Positions 319-23,818 of a stretch of DNA of 24,954 nt are shown here, in pieces. Below the pieces are notes generated by a model that was given only the letters and a program-made list of their open reading frames with translations, ran no database searches and had not been told where the DNA came from. Both the position numbers and the translations under genes were made by a program. The number at the start of each line of letters is the position of its first letter. Position 1 is the first letter of the stretch. Origin of the DNA: a virus (Duplodnaviria > Heunggongvirae > Uroviricota > Caudoviricetes); IMG/VR virus record IMGVR_UViG_2778261464_000013; one strand, 5' to 3'.

Positions 319-1859
319 TATGCAGCCCTCACAATATAGTTAAAAGCGACATTTCGTGGGCGTGTTTCATTCGCACCTGCAGGTTTAGTCGTTGCCGCAA
401 CAACACCACCCTCTGTAATAGCCGGGTTGGGAATTGGGTAATTATCGAAGTCAATGGCTGGAGACAGGGGCGTGATTTGTTTTAAAATCGTGGTGCCTGT
501 AAAACTTTCCAGAGTCTGGTCGTTAGTTCGTGAAGTCCAGATTCCCCAATAGTGGTTATGACTGACAATCGCACCGTCCTGAAGCGTTAATAATCCCCTT
601 CCGTTATCCACTCCACGTCCGTCATCCCAGCCACGAATAAATTCACCGCGTAAATCAGGCAATTTATTTGTCGGATAAGCCTTTGCCAGTTCCGGGTATT
701 CTTCAGCAGAAAAAGCTGCTCCGTTGCATTTCAGCCAGCCTGTCGGCGGAGTGGCGGAAGGCCACGGAACAGGCACACCAACAGGTAATGCAGAGCCTTC
801 TCCCAAACCAAGGTATGCGAGAAGACCAGCCACATCCTTTCCACTCAAATTGGTAAGCGTATTGTCCAGCGGTTGTTTACCTGCCAGCGCATTAAGCATT
901 GTCGTGGCAAAGTTCGGATCATTCCCCAGTGCCGCCGCCAGTTCGTTCAGTGTATCCAGTGCCGCAGGTGCAGAACCCACCATTGCCGCAATCGCCGATT
1001 TCACAAAAGCCGTAGTGGCAATCTGTGTATTGTTGACCGACTGCGCCGCCGTGGGGGCTGTTGGCGTTCCGGTGAGTGCCGGACTCGACAGCGGCGCTTT
1101 CAGTGCCAGCGCATTGTTAATGGTGGTACTGAATTTCGGGTCATTGTTAATGGCTGCGGCTATTTCTTTCAGCGTGTCCAGCGTGGCTGGCGCACCATTA
1201 ATCAGGGCCGTCAGTGCCGCCTGAACAAATGCGGTGGTCGCAAGCTGAGTGGTATTATTCCCCGCCGCTGGCGTTGGCGCTTTGGGGGTTCCGGTAAATG
1301 TCGGACTTTCTTTGGGTGCATACTGTGAATGCGGGTCCAGTGCGGCAAGATGTTTTGCTATCAGGTCATCCACGTACACCTTCAGCTCCAGTGCCTTGTC
1401 ATCCACATACTTGCGGGTTGCCAGCACTACAGCAGGGTCGATTTTCAGGATGATATTGTCCGTACTGCTGGTAATCAGCACCATGCGCACGGTCTGGGTA
1501 CGCCCACTGCCTTCAGCCAGTTGCGGCTTATAGCTTTCCGGGCAGTTACCCACGGCAATCAATGCCCCGGACTCATCAAACAAGCCCACTTCACGTATCC
1601 ACCAACCGCCCTCGTTTTCAGGGATCACCTGTTCAGCAATAATCTGGCTGCTGTTCTGCGGGTCGATATAGAGCATATTCAGCGCAGCCCGGCGTTTCTC
1701 ATTTACCAGTGCTGTCTGCTTTGCGTCCGGCGTTGGTAATGTTCCGCCGCCATCGCCGACCGCCATATGGGTAATTTTTAAAGGCACACCGAGCGCGGCG
1801 GCGCTGGCAAGTTTCGCCGCGCCAATATCCGTCAGCAGGGTATAAAATTTTGTGCTCAT
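318..1859 (-). CDS. H: Tail fibre protein (gpH-like) with conserved N-terminal shaft-attachment region, internal tandem repeats and a C-terminal collar-type receptor-binding region
   Basis: 513-aa ORF. The N-terminus (MSTKFYTLLTDIGAAKLA...) is typical of P2-family gpH. The C-terminus contains LPDLRGEFIRGWDDGRGVD, which resembles the phage tail collar motif. ATG at 1859..1857. Confidence 0.85.
   Translation of the reverse strand: MSTKFYTLLTDIGAAKLASAAALGVPLKITHMAVGDGGGTLPTPDAKQTALVNEKRRAALNMLYIDPQNSSQIIAEQVIPENEGGWWIREVGLFDESGALIAVGNCPESYKPQLAEGSGRTQTVRMVLITSSTDNIILKIDPAVVLATRKYVDDKALELKVYVDDLIAKHLAALDPHSQYAPKESPTFTGTPKAPTPAAGNNTTQLATTAFVQAALTALINGAPATLDTLKEIAAAINNDPKFSTTINNALALKAPLSSPALTGTPTAPTAAQSVNNTQIATTAFVKSAIAAMVGSAPAALDTLNELAAALGNDPNFATTMLNALAGKQPLDNTLTNLSGKDVAGLLAYLGLGEGSALPVGVPVPWPSATPPTGWLKCNGAAFSAEEYPELAKAYPTNKLPDLRGEFIRGWDDGRGVDNGRGLLTLQDGAIVSHNHYWGIWTSRTNDQTLESFTGTTILKQITPLSPAIDFDNYPIPNPAITEGGVVAATTKPAGANETRPRNVAFNYIVRAA
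881..1324 (-). repeat. Tandem duplication of about 222 nt (74 codons) inside the tail-fibre gene
   Basis: Two adjacent nucleotide copies, e.g. gccagcgcatt at about 883 and about 1105. They encode repeated protein blocks of the form TGTP.APT....N.TQ.ATTAFV...A......AP..LDTL.E.AAA..NDP.F.TT..NALA.K. Confidence 0.75.
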
Positions 1860-2461
1860 GGATTCACTCTCATTGTGTCAATAACATGGACCGCCCCGCC
1901 TTCATGCGCGGTGCCGCCGGAAATAATTGTTTCGTTGATATACGGATAGATCGTGATTTCTTCGCCAAGATAACTGGCGGCTCCCACCCAATGCGGGCCG
2001 CTGGTCTGCAGATTGATGGACATGCCGATCATGTGACGGCTACATGGTTTGGCATCGCTTATCAGTCGCTCAAGTTCCAGATAGGTATCTTCAGTGATGC
2101 CCTGATCCTGCACGCCGATATCCAGGCGAAACGTGCCTGGTGTTTCTCCGGTCTGCCACCACTCAATAATGCGGATCAGAAAGCCGAACGGCTCCACCAC
2201 CCGCCGCACGGCACTGGTGGTTCCTTTATGCTGATGAATATAAAAAGCATCCTTCACCACCTGGCGTTTGACACTTTCAGTCCAGCCCTCATCCCAGCGA
2301 TCCACAGAGAACGCCCAGGCGAGATAAGGCAGGAAACTGACCGGACAGGTCGTCGGATCCCACAGGTCACGCAGCGGCACCTGCAAATCAGAAATCCCGC
2401 TGCACGCTTGCGCCAGTCGGCGCTCCAGTGAAGTTGAACCCGGTGGCAGCAGACTATTCAT
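1856..2461 (-). CDS. I: Baseplate assembly protein gpI
   Basis: 201-aa ORF between J and H. Its stop overlaps the H start and its start overlaps the J stop. Assignment by P2 gene order and sequence character. Confidence 0.75.
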   Translation of the reverse strand: MNSLLPPGSTSLERRLAQACSGISDLQVPLRDLWDPTTCPVSFLPYLAWAFSVDRWDEGWTESVKRQVVKDAFYIHQHKGTTSAVRRVVEPFGFLIRIIEWWQTGETPGTFRLDIGVQDQGITEDTYLELERLISDAKPCSRHMIGMSINLQTSGPHWVGAASYLGEEITIYPYINETIISGGTAHEGGAVHVIDTMRVNP

Positions 2462-3362: not shown

Positions 3363-3708
3363 TCTCTGCTCCTGTTGATACGGAAAGGGAAACAGGCACA
3401 CCGTTATTCCGCCGCCCGGTCAGCTCCACCACCATTGAACCGTCAAAATTGCTGTGGATGGTGATGGAATCCAGCGTCAGCCGTGGCTCCCAGCGACTCA
3501 GCGCCACATACACTGCCGACATGACCTGCAGGCGTAATGCCGGATTTTGTGGCTGGTCTATCAGTGCCGACAGCAGGGAACCATATTCACGACGGGCAAT
3601 GCGACTACCCTGTGGTGTCAGCAGAATGTCCCGCACCGACTGGCGCAGATGGTCAATATCAGTAATGGCTTTGCCGCTGGTATTGTTCATCCCGCTATAA
3701 AGCGTCAT
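3349..3708 (-). CDS. W: Baseplate wedge protein gpW (GPW/gp25 family)
   Basis: 119-aa ORF. ATG at 3708..3706 overlaps the TGA stop of V (ATGA coupling). Position between V and J. Confidence 0.8.
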   Translation of the reverse strand: MTLYSGMNNTSGKAITDIDHLRQSVRDILLTPQGSRIARREYGSLLSALIDQPQNPALRLQVMSAVYVALSRWEPRLTLDSITIHSNFDGSMVVELTGRRNNGVPVSLSVSTGAENGSD

Positions 3709-4283
3709 ACCGGGCCTCCAGTTGTATCGCCGCCTTTCAGGACGCCAGTATGCTGATGCGCATCAACCACGATCCCGTTAGAACTCATCGCTCCGCCGCC
3801 CTGGGTAATGCCACCATTGATCACCACTTCACTGTTAATGCGCGTGCGGTCAGCCTCCAGTACAAACTCACTGGTTTTCATGGTGATGTTGTCAGCGGCC
3901 TCAATGACCATTGATTTGATGCCCCTGACATACCAGCGCCCGGTGGCGGGTTCGTATTCAAACCAGCCACCGTCAGGATGTTCTATCACGCAGGCGTCCG
4001 CCGACGTCGACGGTGGCGCGAACTGATTCGAATAGATGGCGGGTAACGCAAAGGCGGTTTCCAGATTGCCGCCCAGACTCAGCAGCACCACCTGCTCACC
4101 TTCCGATGGTCGCCACCATGTGCGGGCATTACCCGCGCGCAGCGTCAGCCAGTTAATCCAGTTGGTTTCAAGGTCGCCCGTTTTCACCCGACAAAGCCAG
4201 TTTCCCCGGTCCACTTCGGTGACTACACCTATGCGGATCAGATTGGTGATAAGGCGCATGATTTCGGTTAGTTGTGCGTTCAT
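3705..4283 (-). CDS. V: Baseplate spike/assembly protein gpV
   Basis: ATG at 4283..4281 (MNAQLTEIMRLITNL...), 192 aa. The longer ORF in the track (to 4526) begins with TTG and runs into AT-rich moron DNA, so that extension is rejected. Confidence 0.8.
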   Translation of the reverse strand: MNAQLTEIMRLITNLIRIGVVTEVDRGNWLCRVKTGDLETNWINWLTLRAGNARTWWRPSEGEQVVLLSLGGNLETAFALPAIYSNQFAPPSTSADACVIEHPDGGWFEYEPATGRWYVRGIKSMVIEAADNITMKTSEFVLEADRTRINSEVVINGGITQGGGAMSSNGIVVDAHQHTGVLKGGDTTGGPV

Positions 4284-4322
4284 AGATATATGATGACAGC
4301 TGAAAACTTGTTTATAACTTCT

Positions 4323-4350
4323 TGCAAATTGTGGTATCGATGGTACAAAT
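4323..4350 (+). promoter_or_regulatory. Candidate sigma70 promoter for the S-V moron (TTGCAA-N16-TACAAA)
   Basis: -35-like ttgcaa at 4323..4328 and -10-like tacaaa at 4345..4350, about 37 nt upstream of the ATG at 4387. The match is weak and it overlaps the dyad above. Confidence 0.25.
4330..4347. promoter_or_regulatory. TGT-N12-ACA dyad (tgtggtatcgatggtaca), candidate late-promoter activator (Ogr/B-type) site upstream of V
   Basis: On the V strand it reads TGTACCATCGATACCACA and sits about 46 nt upstream of the V start codon. It closely resembles the dyad upstream of gene P (TGTACCGACAACCACACA) at the same spacing. Confidence 0.4.
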
Positions 4351-4386
4351 TGATAAAAGGATAAAAAACAACCAATAGGTGGATAA

Positions 4387-5193
4387 ATGAGTGTTATGAA
4401 TCCAATAAGTTCTAATATATTTAATGCTGAATTTTTAAACACCCCGGCAGCGGCACTTGCCGCATGGATTTCCATTATTGGAGCTGTTATAACTTTGGTG
4501 ACGATAGTTATAAGAGCACTATTCAAATATAGAAAATCTCATGATGTAATTTTGAAAAAATCAGGAATACCTGCGTTTATATTAAATTTTTTTCTTATAC
4601 GAATATCATTAAAAAGGCTGCCTACTATCACATGGGCTGAAAAATCAATCACGGTTCTCTTTTCACTTCTTTTTTTGTGTGCAATTTATATTTTTGGTCC
4701 AGTTTTCATCCAAGCCATTAGAACCCCACCAAATAGCACATTGCTTTATTGGATAAAGTCCGGTGAATCATTTTATATGTCAAAAAAACTGGCGACTGCA
4801 GCTACAATATTAACCACTCCTGATTGGGAAATATCAAAGGATGATTGCGAAGAGTCATCCTCTGCCAGTACAGAGAAGTACAAATCATTAACTATCGAAC
4901 ATAAAGAAATTCTTTGTAAACTACTAACCACTGATGAAGGGAATGCTTACATTGATGAAGAAGTCAAGAATTTCGTTAAAGACAAATTCTTTATCTATTC
5001 CTTTGCCCCAACAACCATATTTATTCTAATATGGATTTCTTTGGGTTTTATACTGACCATTCACTATTCTAAAAAAGTTAGGAAATATATTCTGACTGAA
5101 CAAAAAAATGCAATTCATTGGGCATATGGTGAATTCAAGACAGAAGGAATCTATTCAATATATCAAGAGTTAGAACGTAAGACTCACCATTAA
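4387..5193 (+). CDS. Hypothetical membrane protein (about 3 predicted TM helices), AT-rich moron at the S-V junction (orf30-like position), opposite strand to the late genes
   Basis: 268-aa ORF with AGGTGG Shine-Dalgarno 5 nt before the ATG. About 22% GC by hand count on the first 50 nt, against a GC-rich flank. Hydrophobic segments AALAAWISIIGAVITLVTIVI, ITVLFSLLFLCAIYIFGPVFI and TIFILIWISLGFILTI. Confidence 0.6.
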   Translation: MSVMNPISSNIFNAEFLNTPAAALAAWISIIGAVITLVTIVIRALFKYRKSHDVILKKSGIPAFILNFFLIRISLKRLPTITWAEKSITVLFSLLFLCAIYIFGPVFIQAIRTPPNSTLLYWIKSGESFYMSKKLATAATILTTPDWEISKDDCEESSSASTEKYKSLTIEHKEILCKLLTTDEGNAYIDEEVKNFVKDKFFIYSFAPTTIFILIWISLGFILTIHYSKKVRKYILTEQKNAIHWAYGEFKTEGIYSIYQELERKTHH

Positions 5194-5581
5194 GACCCAA
5201 CAAACGACGCTCTGCATAACGGACCTCAGGTCCTTTGCGACTGACGCGATCACGCAGGCCGTAGTGATGAACGCGGGCAATGCGCTGCACCTTGCCTTCA
5301 AACTGCACGCTGGCAGAGTCGGCGCTGGCGGCAGTTTTCAGGTATTTTGTGGTGCGCAGCTTCGCAAACATCTGACGTTTGATGCGCCCCTTTTTGCTGC
5401 GTGCTGTTACCCTGCGCGGCTCATAACTGCTGCCATCTGGATTGCGCTGCATCCTGATGTTCTGCTGCTGTGTCCGGCGCAGTTCCTGCGCCAGCTGGCG
5501 CATCATGCGGCTTCTTGCGGCTGGCTCCAGATTCGCCAATAATGCACTCAGCCAGTCGTCCACCTTCTGCAGTTCAGCCAC
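5135..5581 (-). CDS. S: Tail completion protein gpS
   Basis: 148-aa ORF with the VHHYG-type motif of the phage virion morphogenesis (S) family. Position downstream of R. Its 3' end overlaps the convergent moron ORF by 59 nt. Confidence 0.75.
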   Translation of the reverse strand: MAELQKVDDWLSALLANLEPAARSRMMRQLAQELRRTQQQNIRMQRNPDGSSYEPRRVTARSKKGRIKRQMFAKLRTTKYLKTAASADSASVQFEGKVQRIARVHHYGLRDRVSRKGPEVRYAERRLLGLNGESYVLTLDILNRFLLS

Positions 5582-6026
5582 GTTTCACCGTCCACATTTC
5601 TTCAGGTTCATCAGGTTCCGCTACCGCTTCAACGTTCGACACACTGCCGTCAGTGCTGACCAGCACACGCTCCGTCAGTTGCAGGTTAAGGCTGATATCA
5701 CAGACATCGTTGCGCAGAATATCCACCTCAAAGGTGAATAGCTTTTCCCGTAACGCCGGGTTATTGATGGCATCGGGCTGGTTATCCCGCAACCACAGCA
5801 AAACCGGGGCCATCAGCAGATTCTGGTCGCCGCTGAAATCCTCAATCACCACGTTCAGGGTGTAGCGGTACTCCCATGACATGGAGCTGGCCCCCGTGGC
5901 AACCAGCGAACCGTTATCCACAAACAGATGCAGTTTGTCCGGGTTATTGCGGACATAAGGCACCGCTTTATTGAGGGCGTGGCGCAGGGATTGTGGTTTG
6001 TTCACTGTTTCGCTCCTGACAAGCAA
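5574..6026 (-). CDS. R: Tail completion protein gpR
   Basis: 150-aa ORF. Position and sequence character match P2 gpR (FVDNGS...YTLNV...LRDNQPD). Confidence 0.75.
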   Translation of the reverse strand: MLVRSETVNKPQSLRHALNKAVPYVRNNPDKLHLFVDNGSLVATGASSMSWEYRYTLNVVIEDFSGDQNLLMAPVLLWLRDNQPDAINNPALREKLFTFEVDILRNDVCDISLNLQLTERVLVSTDGSVSNVEAVAEPDEPEEMWTVKRG

Positions 6027-6258
6027 TAATCATATCCACTTTGTCTGCACAGACCGCCCAGGCGGCCTCCGTTTCATCCAGCAACGCGTTCAGATCACCG
6101 TTAGTGCGCGGCGTTGCCTGATCCAGCCGACACGGCGTCACTCGCGGACAACCACTGACGGTAAGCTGCACCTCCGGTGAGTGTCGGACGTTCCCGCAGC
6201 CGGATAATGTCAGCAGGCAAAGGAATATCAGCCCAGCGGCGTAAATCCTCGTTCTCAC
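5968..6258 (-). CDS. lysC: o-spanin (Rz1/LysC-like outer-membrane lipoprotein)
   Basis: 96-aa ORF that starts inside the i-spanin gene in another frame and extends past its stop. Signal peptide with lipobox LTLSGC. Confidence 0.6.
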   Translation of the reverse strand: MRTRIYAAGLIFLCLLTLSGCGNVRHSPEVQLTVSGCPRVTPCRLDQATPRTNGDLNALLDETEAAWAVCADKVDMIIACQERNSEQTTIPAPRPQ

Positions 6259-6529
6259 GTTTCAGTTCCTCGATCCGGTGTTGTCGTTGTCTCAGCAGCG
6301 CGCTGGTCTGTTCTGATTCGGCATAGAGCCGCGCCTGCTCCCGGTTGTTGGTTTCAGCCAGAATGGACAGACTGATCAACTGGCTATTTTTCTTCGTTAG
6401 TTCCTGCGCTTTACTTTCTAGCGCCGCGCGCTGCGTTTCGATGGTGTGGCTGGCGCTGTTAAGCCGCCACGACTGCCAGCCCAGCGCAACGAGTATCAGC
6501 GCCACCACTACTGCCAGCGCACGCGTCAT
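6101..6529 (-). CDS. lysB: i-spanin (Rz/LysB-like)
   Basis: 142-aa ORF with an N-terminal TM helix (ALAVVVALILVALGW) followed by a charged coiled-coil region. Immediately downstream of the endolysin. Confidence 0.7.
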   Translation of the reverse strand: MTRALAVVVALILVALGWQSWRLNSASHTIETQRAALESKAQELTKKNSQLISLSILAETNNREQARLYAESEQTSALLRQRQHRIEELKRENEDLRRWADIPLPADIIRLRERPTLTGGAAYRQWLSASDAVSAGSGNAAH

Positions 6530-7041
6530 AGTCCAGCTCCTTTAAGGCACCAGGCCATCTCCCGCGCACGGCGGTTATCCAGCCCCTGATTAAAAACACC
6601 TTTTACATACACCCAGCGCGGCAACTGTCGGCACGCATCTGCCCAGCGCCGCTGATTGAGTAATTTCACCAGTGTGGAACTGCAGGCATTGCCCGTTCCC
6701 ACGTTGAAGGCAAACGACACCACCGAGTCATACACCTTCTGCGGCGGCTGTTGCTTCACACATCTTTCCAGCGCCCGCTCCACACGTAGCACGTTGGAGA
6801 TCAGCCCTTCCGCTGCCTGTCGTTCCGTAATAGTTTTGCCTGGAATGACGCCAGATGTATTACCAATGCCGTCGGTCCAGACACCCGCGCTGCACTGATA
6901 CGGCTGCAGACGACAGCCTTCGTAATCGGCAATCAGTTTCAGCCCCTCCACGGAGGTGTGAAGCTGCTGAAAACCCGGCAGCGTGGCAGCAATAGCCAGC
7001 ACGGCCCCGACAAGACAGCGTTTAACGATTGATGGATTCAT
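6526..7041 (-). CDS. Endolysin, lysozyme (T4-lysozyme/GH24-like) with an N-terminal signal-anchor-release (SAR) domain
   Basis: 171 aa. Weakly hydrophobic N-terminus (VGAVLAIAATLPGF) followed by a lysozyme catalytic region (DYEG...GVWTDGIGNT). Confidence 0.8.
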   Translation of the reverse strand: MNPSIVKRCLVGAVLAIAATLPGFQQLHTSVEGLKLIADYEGCRLQPYQCSAGVWTDGIGNTSGVIPGKTITERQAAEGLISNVLRVERALERCVKQQPPQKVYDSVVSFAFNVGTGNACSSTLVKLLNQRRWADACRQLPRWVYVKGVFNQGLDNRRAREMAWCLKGAGL

Positions 7042-10708: not shown

Positions 10709-12475
10709 ATGAACACCACACTGACACCCGCAGATCTCGATCCCCGTCGGCAGGCCATGCTGCTGTACTTTCAGGGATACCGCGTAGCCCGCATTGCTGA
10801 AATGCTGGGCGAGAAAGTTGCAACCGTTCACAGCTGGAAAAAACGCGACAAGTGGGGTGACTATGGGCCGCTGGATCAGATGCAGCTCACCACCGCCGCA
10901 CGCTACTGCCAGCTCATTATGAAGGAGCACAAAGAAGGGAAAGACTTTAAAGAAATTGACCTGCTGGCGCGCCAGTCTGAGCGCCACGCGCGGATCGGCA
11001 AGTTTAACAATGGCGGCAACGAAGCCGACTTAAACCCTAACGTCGCCAACCGCAACAAAGGCCCGCGCCGTCAACCGGAAAAGAATGTCTTCACCGATGA
11101 ACAGATTGAGAAGCTGGAAGAAATCTTCCATTCCTCCATGTTCAACTACCAGCGCCACTGGTGGGAAGCCGGAAAAACCAATCGCATCCGTAATCTGCTG
11201 AAGTCTCGCCAGATCGGCGCGACCTTTTACTTTGCCCGTGAAGCCCTGATTGACGCCCTACTGACCGGGCGTAACCAGATTTTCCTTTCCGCCAGCAAGG
11301 CTCAGGCCCACGTCTTTAAGCAGTACATCATCGACTTCGCCAAAGAAGTGGAGGTGGAGCTGAAAGGCGATCCGATGGTGCTTCCTAACGGGGCCACGCT
11401 TTACTTCCTCGGCACCAATGCCCGCACGGCCCAGAGTTACCACGGCAACCTGTATCTGGATGAATATTTCTGGATACCGAAATTCCAGGAGCTGCGCAAA
11501 GTGGCTTCCGGTATGGCTATTCACAAAAAATGGCGACAAACCTATTTTTCCACGCCATCCAGCCTGACACACAGTGCTTATCCGTTCTGGTCCGGTGCGC
11601 TGTTCAACCGTGGGCGCAACAAAGCCGATAAGGTGGACATCGACCTGTCCCACAACAATCTGGCCCCCGGCCTGCTGTGCGCAGACGGGCAATACCGCCA
11701 GATAGTCACCGTGGAAGATGCGGTGCGCGGCGGCTGTAACCTGTTCGACCTTGACCAGTTGCGCATGGAGTACAGCCCGGACGAATACCAGAACCTGCTG
11801 ATGTGCGAGTTCGTGGACGATCTCGCGTCCGTGTTCCCGCTCAGCGAGCTGCAGGCGTGCATGGTGGACAGCTGGGAAGTCTGGACCGACTTTCATGCAC
11901 TGGCCCTGCGCCCGTTTGGCTGGCGCGAAGTATGGATCGGCTATGACCCGGCAAAAGGCACGCAGAACGGCGACAGCGCCGGATGCGTGGTGGTGGCACC
12001 GCCAGCCGTACCGGGCGGCAAATTCCGCATTCTTGAGCGGCACCAGTGGCGCGGGATGGACTTCCGCGCCCAGGCTGACGCCATCAAAAAACTGACACAG
12101 CAGTACAACGTGACCTATATCGGCATTGACTCGACCGGCGTCGGTCACGGGGTTTACGAGAACGTGAAAGCGTTTTTTCCAGCCGTCCGGGAGTTTGTCT
12201 ACAACCCCAACGTTAAAAACGCCCTGGTACTCAAGGCCTACGACATTATCAGTCACCGTCGTCTGGAGTTTGACGCCGGACACACCGACATAGCGCAGTC
12301 ATTTATGGCAATCCGTCGCGCCACCACCGCCAGCGGCAACCGCCCAACCTATGAAGCCAGCCGCAGCGAAGAAGCCAGCCATGCCGATCTGGCCTGGGCA
12401 ACAATGCACGCACTGTTTAACGAACCGCTGCAGGGCGAGTCCGCCAATACCAGCAATATTGTGGAGATTTTTTGA
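10709..12475 (+). CDS. P: Terminase ATPase/large subunit gpP
   Basis: 588 aa. N-terminus and overall sequence are typical of P2 gpP. Followed by Q with a 4-nt overlap. Confidence 0.9.
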   Translation: MNTTLTPADLDPRRQAMLLYFQGYRVARIAEMLGEKVATVHSWKKRDKWGDYGPLDQMQLTTAARYCQLIMKEHKEGKDFKEIDLLARQSERHARIGKFNNGGNEADLNPNVANRNKGPRRQPEKNVFTDEQIEKLEEIFHSSMFNYQRHWWEAGKTNRIRNLLKSRQIGATFYFAREALIDALLTGRNQIFLSASKAQAHVFKQYIIDFAKEVEVELKGDPMVLPNGATLYFLGTNARTAQSYHGNLYLDEYFWIPKFQELRKVASGMAIHKKWRQTYFSTPSSLTHSAYPFWSGALFNRGRNKADKVDIDLSHNNLAPGLLCADGQYRQIVTVEDAVRGGCNLFDLDQLRMEYSPDEYQNLLMCEFVDDLASVFPLSELQACMVDSWEVWTDFHALALRPFGWREVWIGYDPAKGTQNGDSAGCVVVAPPAVPGGKFRILERHQWRGMDFRAQADAIKKLTQQYNVTYIGIDSTGVGHGVYENVKAFFPAVREFVYNPNVKNALVLKAYDIISHRRLEFDAGHTDIAQSFMAIRRATTASGNRPTYEASRSEEASHADLAWATMHALFNEPLQGESANTSNIVEIF

Positions 12476-13509
12476 TGGGAAAGAGTAAGAAAAACCGCGC
12501 TGCGGCGACGAATCAGATCCTGCATAAAAACCAAACTTCAGCCGAAGCATTCAGCTTCGGTGATCCCGTTCCTGTTCTGGACCGCCGCGAATTACTGGAC
12601 TATGTGGAATGCGTACAGATGGACCGCTGGTATGAGCCACCAGTGAGTTTCGACGGGCTGGCGCGAACCTTTCGCGCCGCCGTGCACCACAGCTCACCGA
12701 TTGCCGTAAAGTGCAACATACTGACCAGCACCTACATCCCTCATCCGCTGCTCAGCCAGCAGGCTTTTTCACGTTTTGTGCAGGACTATCTGGTATTTGG
12801 TAACGCCTACCTGGAGAAACGCACGAACCGCTTCGGTGAAGTGATCGCCCTTGAACCTGCCCTGGCGAAATACACCCGACGCGGGTTAGACCTGGATACC
12901 TACTGGTTTTTGCAATACGGTATGACAACCCAGCCGTATCAGTTCACGAAAGGCAGCATTTTTCATCTGATGGAACCGGATATTAATCAGGAGATCTACG
13001 GCCTGCCCGGCTATCTTTCTGCCATCCCATCCGCTTTGCTCAACGAGTCCGCCACGCTGTTCCGCCGGAAGTATTACATTAACGGTAGTCATGCTGGCTT
13101 CATCATGTACATGACCGATGCCGCGCAGAACCAGGAGGATGTGAACAACCTCCGCAATGCGATGAAAAGCGCCAAAGGCCCTGGCAACTTCCGAAATCTG
13201 TTTATGTACTCGCCTAACGGCAAAAAGGACGGACTTCAGATCATCCCGTTGTCAGAAGTCGCAGCGAAGGATGAGTTTTTGAATATCAAAAATGTTAGTC
13301 GCGATGACATGATGGCGGCACACCGCGTGCCGCCGCAGATGATGGGGATTATGCCAAATAATGTCGGGGGATTTGGGGATGTGGAAAAGGCTAGTAAGGT
13401 TTTTGTCAGGAATGAGTTAATTCCGCTACAACACAGAATATCTGAAATTAACTCATGGATTGGACTTAATGAAGAACTGGTTAAATTTACCTCATATGAA
13501 TTAGATTAG
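12472..13509 (+). CDS. Q: Portal protein gpQ
   Basis: 345 aa, P2 gpQ-like. The last roughly 130 nt are visibly AT-rich compared with the rest of the gene. Confidence 0.9.
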   Translation: MMGKSKKNRAAATNQILHKNQTSAEAFSFGDPVPVLDRRELLDYVECVQMDRWYEPPVSFDGLARTFRAAVHHSSPIAVKCNILTSTYIPHPLLSQQAFSRFVQDYLVFGNAYLEKRTNRFGEVIALEPALAKYTRRGLDLDTYWFLQYGMTTQPYQFTKGSIFHLMEPDINQEIYGLPGYLSAIPSALLNESATLFRRKYYINGSHAGFIMYMTDAAQNQEDVNNLRNAMKSAKGPGNFRNLFMYSPNGKKDGLQIIPLSEVAAKDEFLNIKNVSRDDMMAAHRVPPQMMGIMPNNVGGFGDVEKASKVFVRNELIPLQHRISEINSWIGLNEELVKFTSYELD

Positions 13510-13521
13510 GCATATAGAAAT

Positions 13522-13551
13522 GCACCTAACATCGAAAGTGAGATTAGGTGC
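13522..13551 (-). terminator. Hairpin between the convergent Q gene and the 384-aa cargo gene (gcacctaa-N14-ttaggtgc)
   Basis: 8-bp inverted repeat with a 14-nt loop. On the minus strand it is followed by an AT-rich stretch (atttctatat). Weak as a terminator. Confidence 0.3.
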
Positions 13552-13560
13552 AAATAATAA

Positions 13561-14712
13561 TCAGCTTATTTGACCTAATAATTCTTCCGCATATTTTTTA
13601 TCACTATCCATCCGTTGCTGAACAGCATCCCTAAGATGCTCTTTCAACTTATCAGGATAATTTTTACATGCATCAATCAATTTTGTTCGTAAAAGCTTAG
13701 CACCATTTACAATGGTGGCATAAGCTAAAGCATCAGCTAACTCCTTAACTTTCACATCATCAGTAATGATAGAAGGGATTGAAAAAACGTAATATTTCGC
13801 AACATAATTTTGCGTATACCAACTATCATATAACAATCCAATTAAAGCATCACCAAGATCACCTCTTCTTTTAAATTTGCTACCAAATGTATTACCCCAT
13901 GTTCCTATAGCTCCTTTGGTCGCATCAGAATAGAAATCCAAATATCCTTTTTTGCACTCTTCGATGATTATATTTTCCATTCTAATTAAAACATCATCAG
14001 GAAGATTTCTCCATGCGCTCGGCTTAATTATTCTAAATACATTAGCAAACTCAACATTATTGCTAGCCTTGCGTAACTCATCACCTAGCAACCGCATTGC
14101 GGCTTTTTCTTCCTCTCCTGAAAAGCGTTGGTTTATTGCTTTGAATATAGAATCAATTTCCTTGGTTGGCCTTTCATTAAAGCGAGAAATTAAACTTTGG
14201 AAAAAATCTAGTAGTTTTTTTTCTGGAATTTGTGATATTAAAGCTTCTGCATAATCAGAATTATTTACAAAGTGAACCTCATAAATTCTTTCAAGAATTG
14301 CTGTGTAATCGAACTCAGCAACATCTCTTTTTAAATACTTAATAAAAGTATCCAACATGATCAATATTCTCATGCAGGAATCTTCTGTATCAGGGAAATT
14401 GTCATGTGTCCTTGGATTTCTTATACACTGATAGTAGCCTCTTAATAGTGCTTCAAATCCGCGCTGTTCGTCCTGCTCTGATACAGATTGAAGACTATTA
14501 ATTTGGATTCTAGGTGATTGTCCACCCAAAACAGTACCAACAAGCTGAGCCCCATCCCCTTCACATTGCCCTTTTTCACGCAGCAAAGTTGTTAGATATT
14601 TGGTTCCTGCAAGTATTGCATCCGAAAATTGGTTGTTTTCCAGCCTATTACCAATCGCTTCAACTAATTCCGCATCGAAATTATTTGTATTAAAGTTATT
14701 TTTTACAAACAT
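13561..14712 (-). CDS. Hypothetical cargo protein with an N-terminal HEPN-like R-x4-H motif (RNPRTH); candidate abortive-infection/defence protein
   Basis: 383 aa from ATG 14712..14710 (the track starts one codon earlier at a GTG). GGGGAG Shine-Dalgarno upstream. About 35% GC by hand count on the last 60 nt. The RNPRTH codons lie at 14421..14404. Confidence 0.55.
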   Translation of the reverse strand: MFVKNNFNTNNFDAELVEAIGNRLENNQFSDAILAGTKYLTTLLREKGQCEGDGAQLVGTVLGGQSPRIQINSLQSVSEQDEQRGFEALLRGYYQCIRNPRTHDNFPDTEDSCMRILIMLDTFIKYLKRDVAEFDYTAILERIYEVHFVNNSDYAEALISQIPEKKLLDFFQSLISRFNERPTKEIDSIFKAINQRFSGEEEKAAMRLLGDELRKASNNVEFANVFRIIKPSAWRNLPDDVLIRMENIIIEECKKGYLDFYSDATKGAIGTWGNTFGSKFKRRGDLGDALIGLLYDSWYTQNYVAKYYVFSIPSIITDDVKVKELADALAYATIVNGAKLLRTKLIDACKNYPDKLKEHLRDAVQQRMDSDKKYAEELLGQIS

Positions 14713-14794
14713 CACACTCCCCTTTTTTTGAAAGGGTATTGTATTGAACCTTGTTAAGATTTCTCAGATAAGTATCACACTATCTCGAGTTGCG

Positions 14795-14822
14795 CGCGCT
14801 CGTATCCCCGCCACGCCTGCCC
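14795..14822 (-). other. Candidate cos (cohesive end) region
   Basis: The minus strand reads GGCGTGGCGGGGATACGAGCGCGCGC. Its first 13 nt match the GC-rich cohesive-end sequence I recall for 186/P2 (GGCG[T/A]GGCGGGGAAAGCA...). It lies in the expected place, between the replication-side cargo and the portal gene. Recalled from memory and not verified. Confidence 0.3.
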
Positions 14823-14858
14823 GCTTTTTGTAGCGATTTTCATGCAGGTGCATGACAT

Positions 14859-14886
14859 AAGCAAAAGCCCACCAGAACTGGCGGGC
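14859..14886 (-). terminator. Rho-independent terminator downstream of the 260-aa membrane-protein gene
   Basis: On the minus strand: GCCCGCC-agttct-GGTGGGC (7-bp GC-rich stem with one G-U pair) followed by TTTTGCTT. It starts about 50 nt after the stop at 14935. Confidence 0.6.
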
Positions 14887-14934
14887 CTCAGCAAAAACGA
14901 TCCTCAAACGATCATGCATATTCATGCGGCATAG

Positions 14935-15717
14935 TCATGCAGTGACTTTGGTCTGGTCAGGCGTAGAAAAATCTTCGAAAGATTTATAAGTTTCAGTATC
15001 AAATATTGAAATACTCTCAACCTGATCCATTGGGATTACATGCCTAAAATGATTTAAGTTCAGTGGAGTTGAGTCTGCTGTAATATTTTTACTAAGGTAA
15101 AGTTCATAGTAACGATGCTGCTCATGGTATCTGAGCGTATCTTTATCACGATAACCACTGATGTATGGTATGAGAGCCAGATGCTGAGTTTCCTGATGCT
15201 CCATCCGAGGAGCAGCTACGTAACCAATGTAAACTTTTCTGGATTTTAGCGTAACAAAGATGAGCTTACCTTCATCTATAGCCTGAACTAACAGTGACTC
15301 AATTCCATCTTGAGCTGCCATCTCGCGATATGCAGATTGACGAATCTCTTCGTTTTCTATTGCTCTTCGCGCATTGTTACCTTGGTCATAAGCAATAAAC
15401 ACCGCAAGCAGCATAGACAACACAAAGAACAATGGGTAAGACATTATCTTTACGTCTGTGAGCCATGAATAAAAGTCCACATGTAACTTAGGCCAAAAAT
15501 AACCAAAAAAATTGATAACTGAGCTTATAACTAGCAAGGTAACGAATGTAACAGCCATCAGAGTAAACCCCTGAATAGCAAACTTACAACCATGCATAGC
15601 TACATAAAAATAGGAATTCCAACCATTACTTCTTGCTTGCCTGATGCGGGACTGGTAATGATTTTCGGTGTACCAGAACCCGCAAACCAGGACGACCATG
15701 ATAACTAAGGGTCCCAT
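14935..15717 (-). CDS. Hypothetical membrane protein: about 3 N-terminal TM helices and a soluble C-terminal domain of roughly 140 aa; candidate defence effector
   Basis: 260 aa. ATG at 15717..15715 sits 3 nt after the stop of the upstream 66-aa ORF, with AAGGA/GAGGA upstream. The flanking region is AT-rich by eye. Hydrophobic segments at roughly aa 3-15, 50-74 and 92-110. Confidence 0.55.
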   Translation of the reverse strand: MGPLVIMVVLVCGFWYTENHYQSRIRQARSNGWNSYFYVAMHGCKFAIQGFTLMAVTFVTLLVISSVINFFGYFWPKLHVDFYSWLTDVKIMSYPLFFVLSMLLAVFIAYDQGNNARRAIENEEIRQSAYREMAAQDGIESLLVQAIDEGKLIFVTLKSRKVYIGYVAAPRMEHQETQHLALIPYISGYRDKDTLRYHEQHRYYELYLSKNITADSTPLNLNHFRHVIPMDQVESISIFDTETYKSFEDFSTPDQTKVTA

Positions 15718-15720
15718 TCC

Positions 15721-15921
15721 TCATCCTTGTCGTTTTGCAGCCAATTCTTCCATTCTGGCACGCATTGATTCACGTACCTGCTTATTGTTCATGTTTAAGG
15801 TCGCCGCACCATTAGCATCTGTGATAATTTTACTATTATCAGACTGTTGCACATCCTGACGGATGACATCCTGCATAATCTTACCTGGTGCAGAGAGAAC
15901 TTTGCGCAGAAGTTCAGACAT
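15721..15921 (-). CDS. Small hypothetical protein (66 aa), translationally coupled to the downstream membrane-protein gene
   Basis: ATG at 15921..15919 is preceded by GGAGGA (4-nt spacer). The track ORF extends upstream to 15996 but has no Shine-Dalgarno there. Confidence 0.45.
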   Translation of the reverse strand: MSELLRKVLSAPGKIMQDVIRQDVQQSDNSKIITDANGAATLNMNNKQVRESMRARMEELAAKRQG

Positions 15922-15981
15922 ATTTTCCTCCTTATGCCTCAAACGCCACGGATTGTGGTGCATGGAAGCTGTCATCTTATG

Positions 15982-15987
15982 ATTATA
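15982..15987 (-). promoter_or_regulatory. Perfect -10 hexamer TATAAT (minus strand) upstream of the 66-aa/260-aa gene pair; candidate promoter
   Basis: The minus strand reads ...gttgtccTATAATcat..., about 55 nt upstream of the ATG at 15921. No good -35 element. Confidence 0.3.
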
Positions 15988-16099
15988 GGACAACAAAAAT
16001 ACGAAACTATTCGAAGAGTGCTACGTATTAACCTATTTACATATCACCCTGCAACCAATTTATCCATAACTAACGCCTCGCACGGCTCGTTGCTCAACC

Positions 16100-16725: not shown

Positions 16726-19140
16726 TTAATACAGGTTCCGCCACTTATCATCTTCCTTCAGACGCTGGTTCCGATAGAAGATACGCAGGCCTGCTCCTGA
16801 CGGAATACTGCCACCGCGAAGGAGTAAATCGACCTCTTTCTCGCTGCCATCAAATCCTCTGGACTTCAGTTCATAGACGAGCTGCTGTCGTTGATGGTCT
16901 GTAATTCGCTGTTTGTAGTCTCTACGCCGTTTCGGTTTCACCAGGCGTAACCTTACAGCCAGTTCCCGGCGCTCTTTTTTGTTCATACTGTGCAGAAAAT
17001 CGTGCAACTCCTTGTCATCCATGCGGGTAATATCCGTTCTGGTGTCCCCATCAGCTGATTTATCTTTCTCCTGTTGGTTCAAATTTTCAGCAAGGGGACA
17101 GTTATTGCCACGAGTCCAAGGGGCGCAAGCGCCCTGGTCGGCTGCCGCCTCCTGAACGTCAACGGCCTTACGAACCATTTTCCACTTCACTGCATGAGTG
17201 CAGATCTTGCCCTCTGCAATGGGTGACCAGATGCCATAAATACGAATGCCGTGATCGCCATAGGCGGTCGGCTCTTCGTTAATTTCATAAGCAGTTCTGA
17301 TGAGGTGATATTTGCGGGGAACCAGTACGCCACCCTGCTTCATGATGTAAGTGGCAAAACAACCAGCATCAGCAGCAGCCAGGATGGCATCAAGGCGCGG
17401 GTTATCCAGTACCGGCGCACCTGCTTTTTTGTCGCCCTGTTGCCTTGCCGCCTGACCAGCCAGCAATCGCAGTTCACGGTAAGCCTGACGCCCCGGAATA
17501 CCAAAGAAGCGGAATTGCTGAACACGATGCAGAGACGCCCAGGCATTAACGTATTCAGCGTTATCACGCAGGGATTTACCCGTTTCCTTGCTGATCTCGC
17601 CAGCCAGACCACGCCCGTCAATGTTCTTACTAATGTATTTCGCGATGTAGCTTGTCGGTGTTCCTTTGCGCGGGTTTATCAGCTCAGATTTAAAGCGTGG
17701 ACCAGTGTTATTACCCAGTTCCTCGCGGTCTTCACGGATGGCAAACTTACACAACAATGCAGTAATGGCACGGCGGTCTTTTTTGCGCATGAAACACAAC
17801 AGGTGCCAGTGAACCGTACCGTCATGATGCGGCTCAGCCACCCGCACGCCATACCAGCGCAACCCGGCTTTGTGCATCGCCTTACGAAATGCAGCAAACA
17901 TGCCGACCAGATAATCGCTGCTTTGTCTTACCGTCGCATTTGTCCAGGTTGGGTTTGGTCTGCCGTTATTGAGCGTGGAATGGAAACGTGACGGACAGGT
18001 GATGGTGTAGAAAACGGCGCAGTCACCGCGCATTTCCGCGATAAGCTCCAGACCTTTAACACAGGCCATCATCTCATTGCGGCGATGTGCAGGGTTGCTG
18101 CTGCTGGCGTTTACCACGTCTTCCATATCCAGCGTGTCGCCGTCTTCGTTCACCAGTTCATGAGAACGAAAAAACTCCAGCGACTTACGGCGCTGCTCAC
18201 GTTTATGCATCACGGCTTCATAGCTGACATAGGGAGATGCTTTTTTGCTGACCAGGCAGACAGCGCGCAACTGCTCTTCCCGCCATTCGCAACGCATATT
18301 CCATAATTTCCGGTACCACCAGTCGGCGCACAACATACGCGCCAGCGAACCCGGAATGAGTTCATAGGGCACGGGTTTACGGCGGTTTCTTTTCCGGCGG
18401 AGTTGCTCAAACGCAGGTGGGATGACATCCAGTCGCAGGGTTTCTGCTGCCACCCTTTCCCATGTCTTGCGGATTTCTTCTGGCTTAACGTCATCGGTGG
18501 CATACAAATCGCCACAAGCTGCATCAAGGCACATGCTCATATGCGCAGCTACCAGGGTGGACAGGCGTTTCACCTGATCCTGACTCATTTCAGGCAGGAT
18601 CAGCAGGCCGTCCAGCCCTTCATGGCTCGCCATAAAGCGAAAAGAAGTGGATAGCTGACTGTCGCGTACATGCTCCAGCCGTTCCAGACATGGCTTAATC
18701 GTCTCACGCAAATAGCGGGAATAAGCCTTTGGCCTGCCCAGGCTGCTGAAGTATTCAATACGTTGCATCAGCGGCTTGCTGATATGGGAAGGCTGGGCGT
18801 TGACGTCAGCCAGAATGACCATGTCTGGATTAAAACGCTGCTGCTCATGCGCCAGCTTTGCCCGGCTAATGAGCTTATCCTGCTCCATTTCGCGCTGGAC
18901 AGGATCACGGGATTCATTAAAGAAATAACGCTCCCAGACCTGCTCACTCAGTGCCTCGCGGCGCAGTTGTTCCTGCTCGTTATCGGCAGCATACAGAGTG
19001 ATCAGGTTTGAAAGTGCAGACTCCGGCGCAACTTCCGCCGGGTCCAGATAAGGGTTAATGGCCTTTTTCGGGCCGTTCCATGAAAATGATGCGGCGGCCT
19101 CGTTAAAGCCGCTAGAGTTGCTCATATCGTCATGACTCAT
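16726..19140 (-). CDS. A: Replication initiation protein gpA (rolling-circle replication initiator/nickase)
   Basis: 804-aa ORF, the largest early gene, immediately downstream of the Dam gene with an ATGA overlap. Position and size are consistent with the P2/186 A gene. Confidence 0.8.
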
Positions 19141-21883: not shown

Positions 21884-22828
21884 ATGTCAACTCAAAAATT
21901 CACATTTCGCCATATTGATGACGATATGAAAGCCGTTGTCATACAAAATCGCGGTGGTCAGAAAGTAATCGAGCGGATACTCATGGCTTATGGCTTCAAG
22001 TCACGCCAAGCATTCTGTAACCATCTAGGTATTTCCCAAAGCACGATGGCTAACAGATATGCCCGCGATACATTTCCTGCAGATTGGGTTGTTATCTGCT
22101 CAATGGAAACTGGAGCATCAATTAAATGGCTAGCATTTGGTTCAGATGATGACGAACAAATGCCATCCCCTTCACCAGAACAGCATGTTGAAACACACTC
22201 CGAAGATGGTTCTTATCATGACGTTCACTATAAACAACCAAAGTTCGATAATGAAAACACCATTGATTATTCTCGGGGTGGCAAGGAAGCAATAGAGCGA
22301 ATTGTTAGGGCTTACGGTTATAAGACTCGCCAAGCCTTAGCTGATCACTTAGGTATTTCAAAAAGCACATTAGCCACAAGATATATGCGTGATGTTTTTC
22401 CTTCAGACTGGATAATTAAGTGCGCTCTCGAAACGGGTACTTCACTAATGTGGCTAACTACTGGTAAAGGCCCAAAGTTTGACGATGCAAGAAATGATGT
22501 AATTGCTATTACTCACAAAAAAATTACTGACGGGAATCTATTTGATTCAAATTTCTATATGCTTGATAAAGCATTACTACCAGACTCAATCCAATTACCA
22601 TTGATTGTTAGCACCGAAAAAAAAACATACCTATGTAATCAATCATTCGATGAAATTACAGATGGTAAATGGATTGTTGAAATAGAAGGGAAAGTGAGCA
22701 TTCGAACCCTAACTAGAATTCCTGTAGGAAGATTAAAAATTTCAGACAATGATTTATCATTTGAATGTAAAATTTCAGATATTGATGTTATTGCAAAATG
22801 CAAATTTATTCTGATAGAAGAATTATAA
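21884..22828 (+). CDS. cI: CI-type immunity repressor with a tandemly duplicated N-terminal DNA-binding domain
   Basis: 314 aa. Residues about 24-86 and about 132-194 are about 60% identical to each other (...IERI..AYG.K.RQA...HLGIS.ST.A.RY.RD.FP.DW...C..ETG.S..WL..G). A C-terminal domain follows. Confidence 0.7.
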   Translation: MSTQKFTFRHIDDDMKAVVIQNRGGQKVIERILMAYGFKSRQAFCNHLGISQSTMANRYARDTFPADWVVICSMETGASIKWLAFGSDDDEQMPSPSPEQHVETHSEDGSYHDVHYKQPKFDNENTIDYSRGGKEAIERIVRAYGYKTRQALADHLGISKSTLATRYMRDVFPSDWIIKCALETGTSLMWLTTGKGPKFDDARNDVIAITHKKITDGNLFDSNFYMLDKALLPDSIQLPLIVSTEKKTYLCNQSFDEITDGKWIVEIEGKVSIRTLTRIPVGRLKISDNDLSFECKISDIDVIAKCKFILIEEL

Positions 22829-22942: not shown

Positions 22943-23818
22943 TTGAAAAACCTATTGGATTCTCTAGAGTTTGATGAATTCGATATACTGCTTGATGCTT
23001 ACAGTCGAAATTTTTCTAAAAAAAAATATATGTATGAGCCCTTCATGCCTGACCATACATCATTGCAAAACAGTGAAGCAGATAAGTACCTTTTAAAAAT
23101 TGATGAGTTAGAACATAAACTACGCGAGTTTCAAAAAAGCCATAATTCGCAGTTAGACCAATTCAACAAGTTGCAGATAGAGTTATTAACTGCAATGGAC
23201 AGTAAAGAAAAACTAGCATCACAGCTAAAACTCCAACACGCCCAAAACAAAGAGTTAAAGCTTCAAAACCAAAAACTTTCAAGCAAAATTCAACAAAATA
23301 AAATTGACGAAAAAGTTCCTGAATATGTGCAGGGTGTCAAAGCAAAATTACATCAGGACGATAAAGATTTCACTGCAATGTCTTACAATTGGGCGATAGC
23401 CGGAATACTTTTATCATTATTATCTATAAGTGCCGCCTTTTTAACATTTTTCTATAAAATAGATATAAAAGACGCCACCCCCATTGAACTTTTTTATTAT
23501 TTCACTAGGGGCTTGCTTGGGGTTGCATTACTTTCTTGGCTTTCTTATTTTTGTTTAAACAATTCAAAAAAATACACACATGAAGCAATCATAAGAAAAG
23601 ACAGACAACACGCTCTAATGTTTGGTGAGGTCTTCTTACAAATTTATGGTTCAACTGCGACAAAACAAGATGCTATTGATGTGTTTAAAGATTGGAACAT
23701 GTCAGCTAATTCTGCATTCGCAGATAAAACGCAGCCACCTCCAAATTTATTTAACATTCTAGGCACACTTGCAGATAAAAAATCAGCAGCAAATGATGAC
23801 ATTGTTACCCAAAAGTGA
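22943..23818 (+). CDS. Hypothetical coiled-coil membrane protein (2 predicted TM helices) between cI and int; candidate superinfection-exclusion/defence protein
   Basis: 291-aa ORF, about 28% GC by hand count on 50 nt. The track start is a TTG with no obvious Shine-Dalgarno; the first in-frame ATG is at 23030, so the true start is uncertain. N-terminal Q/K/L-rich heptad-like region, then hydrophobic segments AIAGILLSLLSISAAFLTFF and LLGVALLSWLSYFCL. Confidence 0.5.
   Translation: MKNLLDSLEFDEFDILLDAYSRNFSKKKYMYEPFMPDHTSLQNSEADKYLLKIDELEHKLREFQKSHNSQLDQFNKLQIELLTAMDSKEKLASQLKLQHAQNKELKLQNQKLSSKIQQNKIDEKVPEYVQGVKAKLHQDDKDFTAMSYNWAIAGILLSLLSISAAFLTFFYKIDIKDATPIELFYYFTRGLLGVALLSWLSYFCLNNSKKYTHEAIIRKDRQHALMFGEVFLQIYGSTATKQDAIDVFKDWNMSANSAFADKTQPPPNLFNILGTLADKKSAANDDIVTQK

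Follow-up and report, generated by a model that had tools for sequence, protein, structure and literature searches.

The interval between gpA and gpQ of P2-like phages has been treated as a single defence hotspot, whose cargo includes old, tin, retrons and validated new systems (Rousset et al. 2022, PMC9122126; Vassallo et al. 2022, PMC9519451). Independently of this locus, the Ymh family (PF09509) has been listed among the HEPN families that conserve the R-x4-H motif (Anantharaman et al. 2013, PMC3710099). Here we analyse a gene in which the two meet, in IMG/VR record IMGVR_UViG_2778261464_000013, a stretch of 24,954 nucleotides (hereafter the window) that corresponds to a P2/186-like prophage. 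The gene (13561..14712, minus strand) encodes a protein with an N-terminal Ymh-type HEPN domain followed by a C-terminal alpha-solenoid.

The exact protein already appears as P2-hotspot system 31, 'Hypoth_Ymh', with 118 loci and the description 'Putative nuclease' (Table S5B of Rousset et al. 2022, PMC9122126). The gene is listed in Tables S5A and S5B of the same study, which also gives the five-gene arrangement of the window for strain CFT073 (NC_004431) and treats a neighbouring 260-amino-acid (aa) protein as a separate system, number 43 ('2 TM', 93 loci). A phage record also names the product 'Hypoth_Ymh domain-containing protein'. The gene is already annotated and catalogued as a candidate, and finding it here is a rediscovery. 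In the literature that we searched, we found no paper testing the protein or describing its C-terminal domain. We present it as an uncharacterised candidate for single-gene defence cargo of the HEPN type in the cos-proximal P2 hotspot, with its modular solenoid as a modest new lead; that this solenoid is shared with kinase and CHAT fusions is the main new observation of our analysis.

The gene and its HEPN domain

The window contains an open reading frame (ORF) at 13561..14715 on the minus strand, which encodes 384 aa from a GTG, with an ATG one codon downstream at 14712..14710. The ATG at 14712 is likely the true start, because it is preceded by a Shine-Dalgarno sequence with a 4-nt spacer and because the same start is used in the RefSeq and GenBank coding sequences (CDS) of 1152 nt. 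The product would then comprise 383 aa, with the stop codon at 13561-13563. It is identical to WP_000497736 (RefSeq 'TIGR02391 family protein'), and the CDS is annotated both in a phage and in E. coli. An earlier note, made from the sequence alone, had described an AT-rich gene of about 1.15 kb at 13561-14712, convergent with Q. These coordinates coincide exactly with the annotated CDS, the stop codon of Q lies at 13509, and the gene has a GC content of 35%, versus 54% for P and Q together. We count this composition in support of a foreign, horizontally acquired origin. As for the length of 384 aa given in that note, it is that of a real ORF, but one counted from the GTG rather than from the likelier ATG.

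The HEPN domain occupies 14338..14682 on the minus strand (about residues 11-125; we use ATG numbering unless stated otherwise). The earlier note had recognised a HEPN-type motif in the N-terminal third and had proposed a profile search against the Pfam HEPN families as a check. Hypoth_Ymh (PF09509) matches residues 12-126 over profile positions 2-117 of 119 (E = 2.9e-23), with a score of 82.4 bits versus a cut-off of 25. NCBIfam TIGR02391 matches as well (44.8 bits versus a cut-off of 39.45), as do the PADLOC models PD-Lambda-3_B (E = 2.4e-14) and Aga_HEPN (E = 2.1e-9), the last two over the HEPN part only (residues 9-126). The codons at 14421..14404 (minus strand) translate as RNPRTH, as had been reported. 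This R-x4-H catalytic motif runs from R98 to H103, residues that the GTG numbering of the earlier note made R99 and H104.

A homologue search returned 51 clusters, nearly all of them 381-388 aa long and matched over their full length, from Klebsiella, Vibrio, Aeromonas, Marinomonas, Sulfurovum, Desulfovibrio and metagenomes. For the analysis of conservation we aligned 29 of these homologues, which are 34-92% identical. All 29 sequences invariably keep the R, N, P, R and H of RNPRTH, together with a GDG motif and the residue pairs EQ and RG in the HEPN domain. PF09509 is matched by all 29 close homologues and by 90 of 104 wider relatives. Of 103 wider representatives, 84 keep RNxxxH; the 19 without it include 12 kinase or CHAT forms, described below. 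When the protein was shuffled, R-x4-H arose by chance in 16% of cases and R-[NQ]-x3-H in 1.8%; a second, non-conserved R-x4-H is in fact present at residue 142. The bare R-x4-H motif is thus weak evidence on its own, and RNPRTH is meaningful because it combines a profile match with invariance in the family.

An AlphaFold2 model built from the alignment is confidently all-helical (pLDDT 88.4, pTM 0.64), and in this model RNPRTH sits between helix 78-97 and helix 111-129 (GTG numbering; 77-97 and 110-128 from the ATG). The model lends some support to a HEPN fold but does not settle it. Foldseek searches against the PDB gave no significant match for either the full model or the separately predicted N-terminal domain; with the latter, the hits to 2hsb, Csm6 and a HEPN toxin all have E values above 1. 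A sequence search of the PDB detected no solved structure for the Ymh family. On the grounds of profile and motif, membership of the N-terminal domain in the HEPN superfamily, as a true Ymh member, can be regarded as established.

A C-terminal solenoid shared with other effectors

The remainder of the protein (about residues 130-383; 13564..14325, minus strand) is predicted to form an alpha-solenoid, in which the motifs GTWGN (residues 270-274), WYTQNY (298-303) and LAYAxxxNxA (with N336 and A338) are invariant in the family. Across the 29-sequence alignment it is conserved as strongly as the HEPN domain. No Pfam, NCBIfam, PADLOC or PDB sequence match to this region was obtained in any of the 29 members. 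The modelled fold resembles those of condensin Cnd3 and importins, a similarity of fold class only. The earlier note had seen no recognisable motif in the C-terminal 250 aa or so, which holds as far as profile matches are concerned, but the region now resolves into a solenoid found in proteins of other kinds.

We built a profile from the solenoid alone (alignment A2) and searched it against 1.84 billion cluster representatives. This yielded 516 matches at E <= 0.001, including 102 at E <= 1e-30. The 516 clusters, defined at 50% identity, come from Proteobacteria, Acidobacteriota, Planctomycetota, Latescibacterota and Campylobacterota. Most of the proteins are about 375-400 aa long, and in these the domain begins near residue 127-135; it begins near residue 220-230 in a distinct set of 445-472 aa, and a few proteins are longer. 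A Pfam scan of 104 full-length representatives identified the N-terminal partner of the solenoid as a Ymh-type HEPN domain in 90, a Ser/Thr protein kinase in 13 and a CHAT (caspase-like) protease in one. Kinase-fused members occur in Pseudomonas azerbaijanoccidentalis, P. thivervalensis, Duganella radicis, Thauera, Xylophilus, Bryobacterales and Planctomycetaceae, and they keep the WYTQNY and G-x-LGT motifs.

Among the loci collected around homologues, the kinase-fused relatives are about 450 aa long and display G-loop, VAVKI and HGDLH motifs (L024, L025, L026, L028, L029, L030 and L031; in L025 the gene lies at 5326-6672 on the plus strand). The kinase-fused gene of P. azerbaijanoccidentalis has a gene for a DUF4145 (HEPN-family) protein as its neighbour, and a UmuC-like polymerase gene lies nearby.

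Because one conserved, non-catalytic module is joined to three unrelated enzymatic heads, the sequence comparisons point to the solenoid as a shared sensor or regulator coupled to interchangeable effectors. One may go further and propose that it is a widespread immune-sensor module not described before, which would directly recognise a phage-derived ligand and switch on the fused HEPN ribonuclease (RNase), kinase or CHAT protease, so that the whole would form a new family of single-protein defence systems. This extension is tentative, and we hold it to be possible rather than probable. It is improbable that the solenoid reads RNA in a PUF-like manner and so directs the RNase to a specific RNA. 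PUF/Pumilio homology was considered and rejected: it receives no profile support (E = 0.19 in one of the 29 members), and the PDB sequence search returned noise.

Position of the gene beside cos

Recognisable genes of the window include terminase P (10709-12475, plus strand), portal Q (12472-13509, plus strand), replication gene A (16726-19140, minus strand), a Dam methylase, CII, a CI-type repressor and an integrase. From Q to A, the minus-strand ORFs are, in order, the HEPN gene, the ORF of the 260-aa protein (14935-15717), a short ORF (15721-15996) and a DinI/Tum-like gene.

A search for the P2 cos sequence with three mismatches allowed found no match in the window, and a relaxed pattern, GGCGTGGCGGGG, occurs there only once, at 14806-14817 on the minus strand. 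We then built the circularised cos junction of P2 from its annotated cosL and cosR ends and aligned it to the window. The equivalent of the 19-nt cohesive end, GGCGTGGCGGGGATACGAG, lies at 14817..14799 on the minus strand and is identical to the annotated P2 cos, GGCGAGGCGGGGAAAGCAC, at 14 of 19 positions, the alignment extending over about 130 bp into the cosR-side flank. A block at 14789-14934 is conserved in about 90 records of P2/186-like phages from Klebsiella, Yersinia, Salmonella and E. coli. Phage homology ends abruptly at about 14789, roughly 10 bp past the cohesive end on the Q side. The cos site, which the earlier note had put forward as a candidate, is confirmed by the alignment and the conserved block, and so is the placement of the HEPN gene between it and Q. 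The Q-to-cos interval spans 1289 bp in the window versus 167 bp in P2 (cosL at 1-19, Q ending at 187). The figure of about 0.1 kb given in the earlier note for P2 was too low, but the contrast that it drew with the window still stands. From the cos alignment and the end of homology near 14789, it follows that the HEPN gene and some 75 bp of 5' sequence belonging to it fill the Q-to-cos interval.

The cohesive end forms the boundary between a Q-side and an A-side slot, and both sides of cos are cargo sites. In Fels-2, the Q-to-cos slot is occupied by an unrelated hypothetical protein of 565 aa (STM2723.1; 737-2434, minus strand, of its locus sequence), and a 243-aa hypothetical protein lies on the A side. 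A 53-aa ORF of the window (14764-14925, minus strand) spans the cohesive end and the conserved block; it is probably no gene, and a Yersinia phage record has a short hypothetical protein annotated over the equivalent block.

The 5' region of the HEPN gene (14717..14767, minus strand) is a variable stretch that travels with the gene. It contains the Shine-Dalgarno sequence GGGGAG (14722-14717) and a weak sigma-70-like site, CTGAGA-18-TACAAT (14767-14738, minus strand), whose match to the consensus at 9 of 12 positions is not above chance. At the other end, the convergent stops of Q and the HEPN gene are separated by a 9-bp perfect inverted repeat, TGCACCTAA / TTAGGTGCA (13521..13552), which folds at -14.9 kcal/mol as RNA (z = -4.8 versus shuffled sequence) and probably acts as a bidirectional terminator hairpin. 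The P2 terminator tQ occupies the equivalent place. Rfam and tRNA scans across the window found no RNA.

Distribution and autonomy

The HEPN gene is present in 52 of 5426 complete E. coli genomes, with at least 99% identity, in one copy per genome and always on the chromosome. For comparison, a 2.7-kb query that covers Q, cos and the cargo beside it finds at least a partial match in 1253 of the 5426 genomes. In 51 of the 52 carriers, the HEPN gene is flanked by the 3' end of Q and the cos block. The gene for the 260-aa protein stands alongside it in only five records, namely four CFT073 assemblies and UPEC_U013 (99.4% identical); of the 51 genomes with the HEPN gene at this locus, about 46 are devoid of the 260-aa gene. 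Conversely, the 260-aa gene is found at 100% identity in other genomes that lack the HEPN gene. The two cargos therefore recombine independently around cos. The 260-aa protein itself (14935-15717, minus strand), an AT-rich cargo on the A side, has N-terminal transmembrane helices, belongs to PHROG 3630 and has no Pfam match.

More distant homologues reside in a variety of contexts. The one from Aeromonas dhakensis is located in the early region of a lambdoid prophage. In two metagenomic islands, the homologue lies among TIR, SNase, kinase, diadenylate-cyclase and Mrr genes, next to an integrase. Elsewhere it is accompanied by SIR2-like plus DUF87/HerA and SMEK_N/DUF2326 genes. The proteins encoded upstream in four of these contexts (204-308 aa) are unlike one another and unlike the neighbour in the window. 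In the metagenomic locus L008, an unrelated 271-aa protein (5972-6787, plus strand) just upstream of a family member carries R-N-x3-H (IRNLCDH) near its C-terminus, and may be a second HEPN-like protein beside the first.

Neither an MNT-type antitoxin nor any other recurrent partner was seen in the window or at the homologue loci examined, and a conserved partner gene was rejected in view of the mutually unrelated upstream neighbours of distant homologues in the four contexts compared. The HEPN gene stands alone, as a single-gene module. The description of a standalone gene at a phage defence hotspot, made from the window by itself, is thereby borne out, both by these unrelated neighbours and by the published gpA-gpQ hotspot. 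Another possibility, that the protein is an ordinary P2 packaging or structural factor, can be discarded: most P2-like phages lack the gene, and it is carried by a lambdoid prophage and by islands that are not phages.

Proposed mechanism and alternative explanations

We consider it fairly probable, though well short of certain, that the gene is a single-gene, horizontally acquired anti-phage module, probably of the abortive-infection type that the earlier note had thought plausible, carried as cos-proximal cargo by a P2/186-like prophage. In this scheme, the Ymh-type HEPN domain would be the effector, a metal-independent RNase with an active site formed by R98, N99 and H103; by analogy to other HEPN enzymes, its active form is probably a dimer. 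The solenoid would keep the RNase silent in the lysogen. Upon infection, it would bind a signal produced by the incoming phage, either protein or nucleic acid, and thereby license RNA cleavage, which would bring translation and phage growth to a stop. We favour an anti-phage function because of the HEPN identity of the domain, the conservation of its motif, the hotspot location, the foreign GC content, the patchy distribution, the other prophage and island contexts, the autonomy of the gene and its modularity.

Several observations weigh against this interpretation. The protein is outside the systems that Rousset et al. report as cloned, although Table S5B lists it; their 'Putative HEPN' construct pFR103 (strain S88), which belongs to the additional tested list and not to the validated list, has a different sequence. 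PADLOC matches the HEPN part alone and recognises no complete known system. The inter-domain geometry of the AlphaFold2 model is uncertain, as reflected by its pTM, and we infer, rather than observe, that the solenoid restrains toxicity. Finally, some contexts of the family are not obviously related to defence (L008 and L030).

Among the other explanations, the one that survives best is that the protein benefits the phage otherwise than by exclusion. It could process or regulate RNA and tune host or prophage transcripts (lysogenic conversion), or act in counter-defence by degrading or sequestering a host immune RNA or signal, with the solenoid as a scaffold for binding RNA or protein. Yet in chromosomal islands that have no surrounding phage, family members lie beside TIR, SIR2, HerA-like and nuclease genes, the solenoid has no PUF profile match, as noted above, and the strictly invariant catalytic motif argues for a nuclease over a binder. 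We regard this explanation as unlikely.

Slightly less likely still is an addiction or toxin module, in which the HEPN RNase would stabilise the prophage or the cargo cassette by post-segregational killing and be restrained by its own C-terminal domain or by a small protein or RNA acting as an unrecognised antitoxin; defence would not be the primary role. HEPN domains are indeed frequent as toxins of toxin-antitoxin systems (PMC3710099), and the gene consists of AT-rich foreign DNA on a mobile element. However, no MNT or other conserved partner accompanies it and its surroundings vary among all the contexts examined; most E. coli carriers have no other cargo on that side of cos, and Rfam detects no RNA in the window. 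In addition, that the solenoid also pairs with kinase and CHAT domains is more readily explained by a sensing role than by a dedicated antitoxin.

Finally, a two-gene system that would pair the HEPN RNase with the two-transmembrane 260-aa protein across cos, as a membrane sensor or effector, is largely refuted and very improbable: although the two genes are on the same strand, 220 bp apart, both AT-rich cargo, and recur as a pair in CFT073-like genomes, in E. coli each occurs independently of the other, the cos site and the conserved block stand between them, the neighbours of distant homologues are unrelated, and Rousset et al. listed the two as separate systems (31 and 43).

Other possible cargo in the prophage

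Two further ORFs of the window resemble cargo. The first (4387-5193, plus strand; 268 aa) is AT-rich (GC about 0.33), lies beside gpV (3705-4526) on the strand opposite to the surrounding baseplate and tail genes, and looks like the occupant of a cargo (moron) slot; it has a DUF6216 match and no PADLOC match. The second (22943-23818, plus strand; 291 aa; GC about 0.28-0.33) is located between the CI-type repressor and the integrase, shows weak coiled-coil-like Pfam matches and no PADLOC match, and possibly marks a third cargo or defence slot. The ORF of the CI-type repressor (21884-22828, plus strand; 314 aa) contains two separate Phage_CI_repr helix-turn-helix stretches, which suggests either a tandem arrangement or an ORF overextended upstream of the true start.

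Significance

If active, the gene would add another single-gene HEPN defence to the repertoire of the P2 hotspot, in a compact form of 1.15 kb with its own putative promoter. Uropathogenic CFT073 already carries it, as do about 1% of complete E. coli genomes. The result on the gene itself confirms and slightly extends a published list of candidates and, as it stands, opens no new question. The solenoid is the more useful lead, as knowledge of its ligand would reveal a mode of trigger recognition reusable with three effector chemistries and in many phyla.

Comparison with known systems

The PADLOC systems whose models gave the best hits have a Ymh-type HEPN domain in common with our protein. 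In PD-Lambda-3_B, however, this domain is C-terminal (profile positions 138-258 of 270), whereas it is N-terminal here, and the name of the model (_B) implies a second component. Assignment to PD-Lambda-3 was rejected, as only the HEPN portion is matched and none of the scanned neighbours matches any PADLOC model; the window contains neither a PD-Lambda-3 partner nor an Argonaute. A HEPN-MNT toxin-antitoxin system was likewise rejected, as the window contains no MNT gene and none is found among the neighbours at the homologue loci examined.

Like AbiJ, ApeA, HEPN-TPR and PrrC/RloC, the protein is predicted to combine a HEPN RNase effector and a regulatory domain in a single polypeptide carried by mobile elements, but it shares no sequence relationship with them outside the HEPN core. 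It has no TPR, unlike HEPN-TPR, and its domain order is the reverse of that of AbiJ. An anticodon nuclease of the PrrC/RloC type, in which an N-terminal ABC-ATPase regulatory domain is fused to the HEPN nuclease, was discarded because Pfam and NCBIfam detect no ATPase domain, the non-HEPN part being an all-helical solenoid. The likeness of that part to HEAT, ARM and Pumilio alpha-solenoids is a resemblance of fold with no sequence-profile match (Foldseek E of at least 0.04), and implies neither homology nor RNA binding.

A close relationship exists with the Ymh HEPN family (PF09509/TIGR02391), of which the N-terminal domain is a full-length, above-threshold member with R-N-x3-H. The architecture differs from those described for this family, in which the HEPN domain is either solo or preceded by pMORC, AbiJ-NTD1 or AbiTii (PMC3710099), while here it comes first and is followed by a solenoid of about 250 aa. 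With respect to other P2 hotspot cargo, old, tin, DUF4238 and DprA-PRTase have reported phenotypes, while the HEPN gene is a candidate; relative to cos, old and tin are A-side cargo and the HEPN gene is Q-side cargo. Like these cargos, it is AT-rich and patchily distributed and may have its own promoter (here a weak, putative site), and it shares their locus, being located between gpA and gpQ beside cos, at a site whose occupancy varies among related phages.

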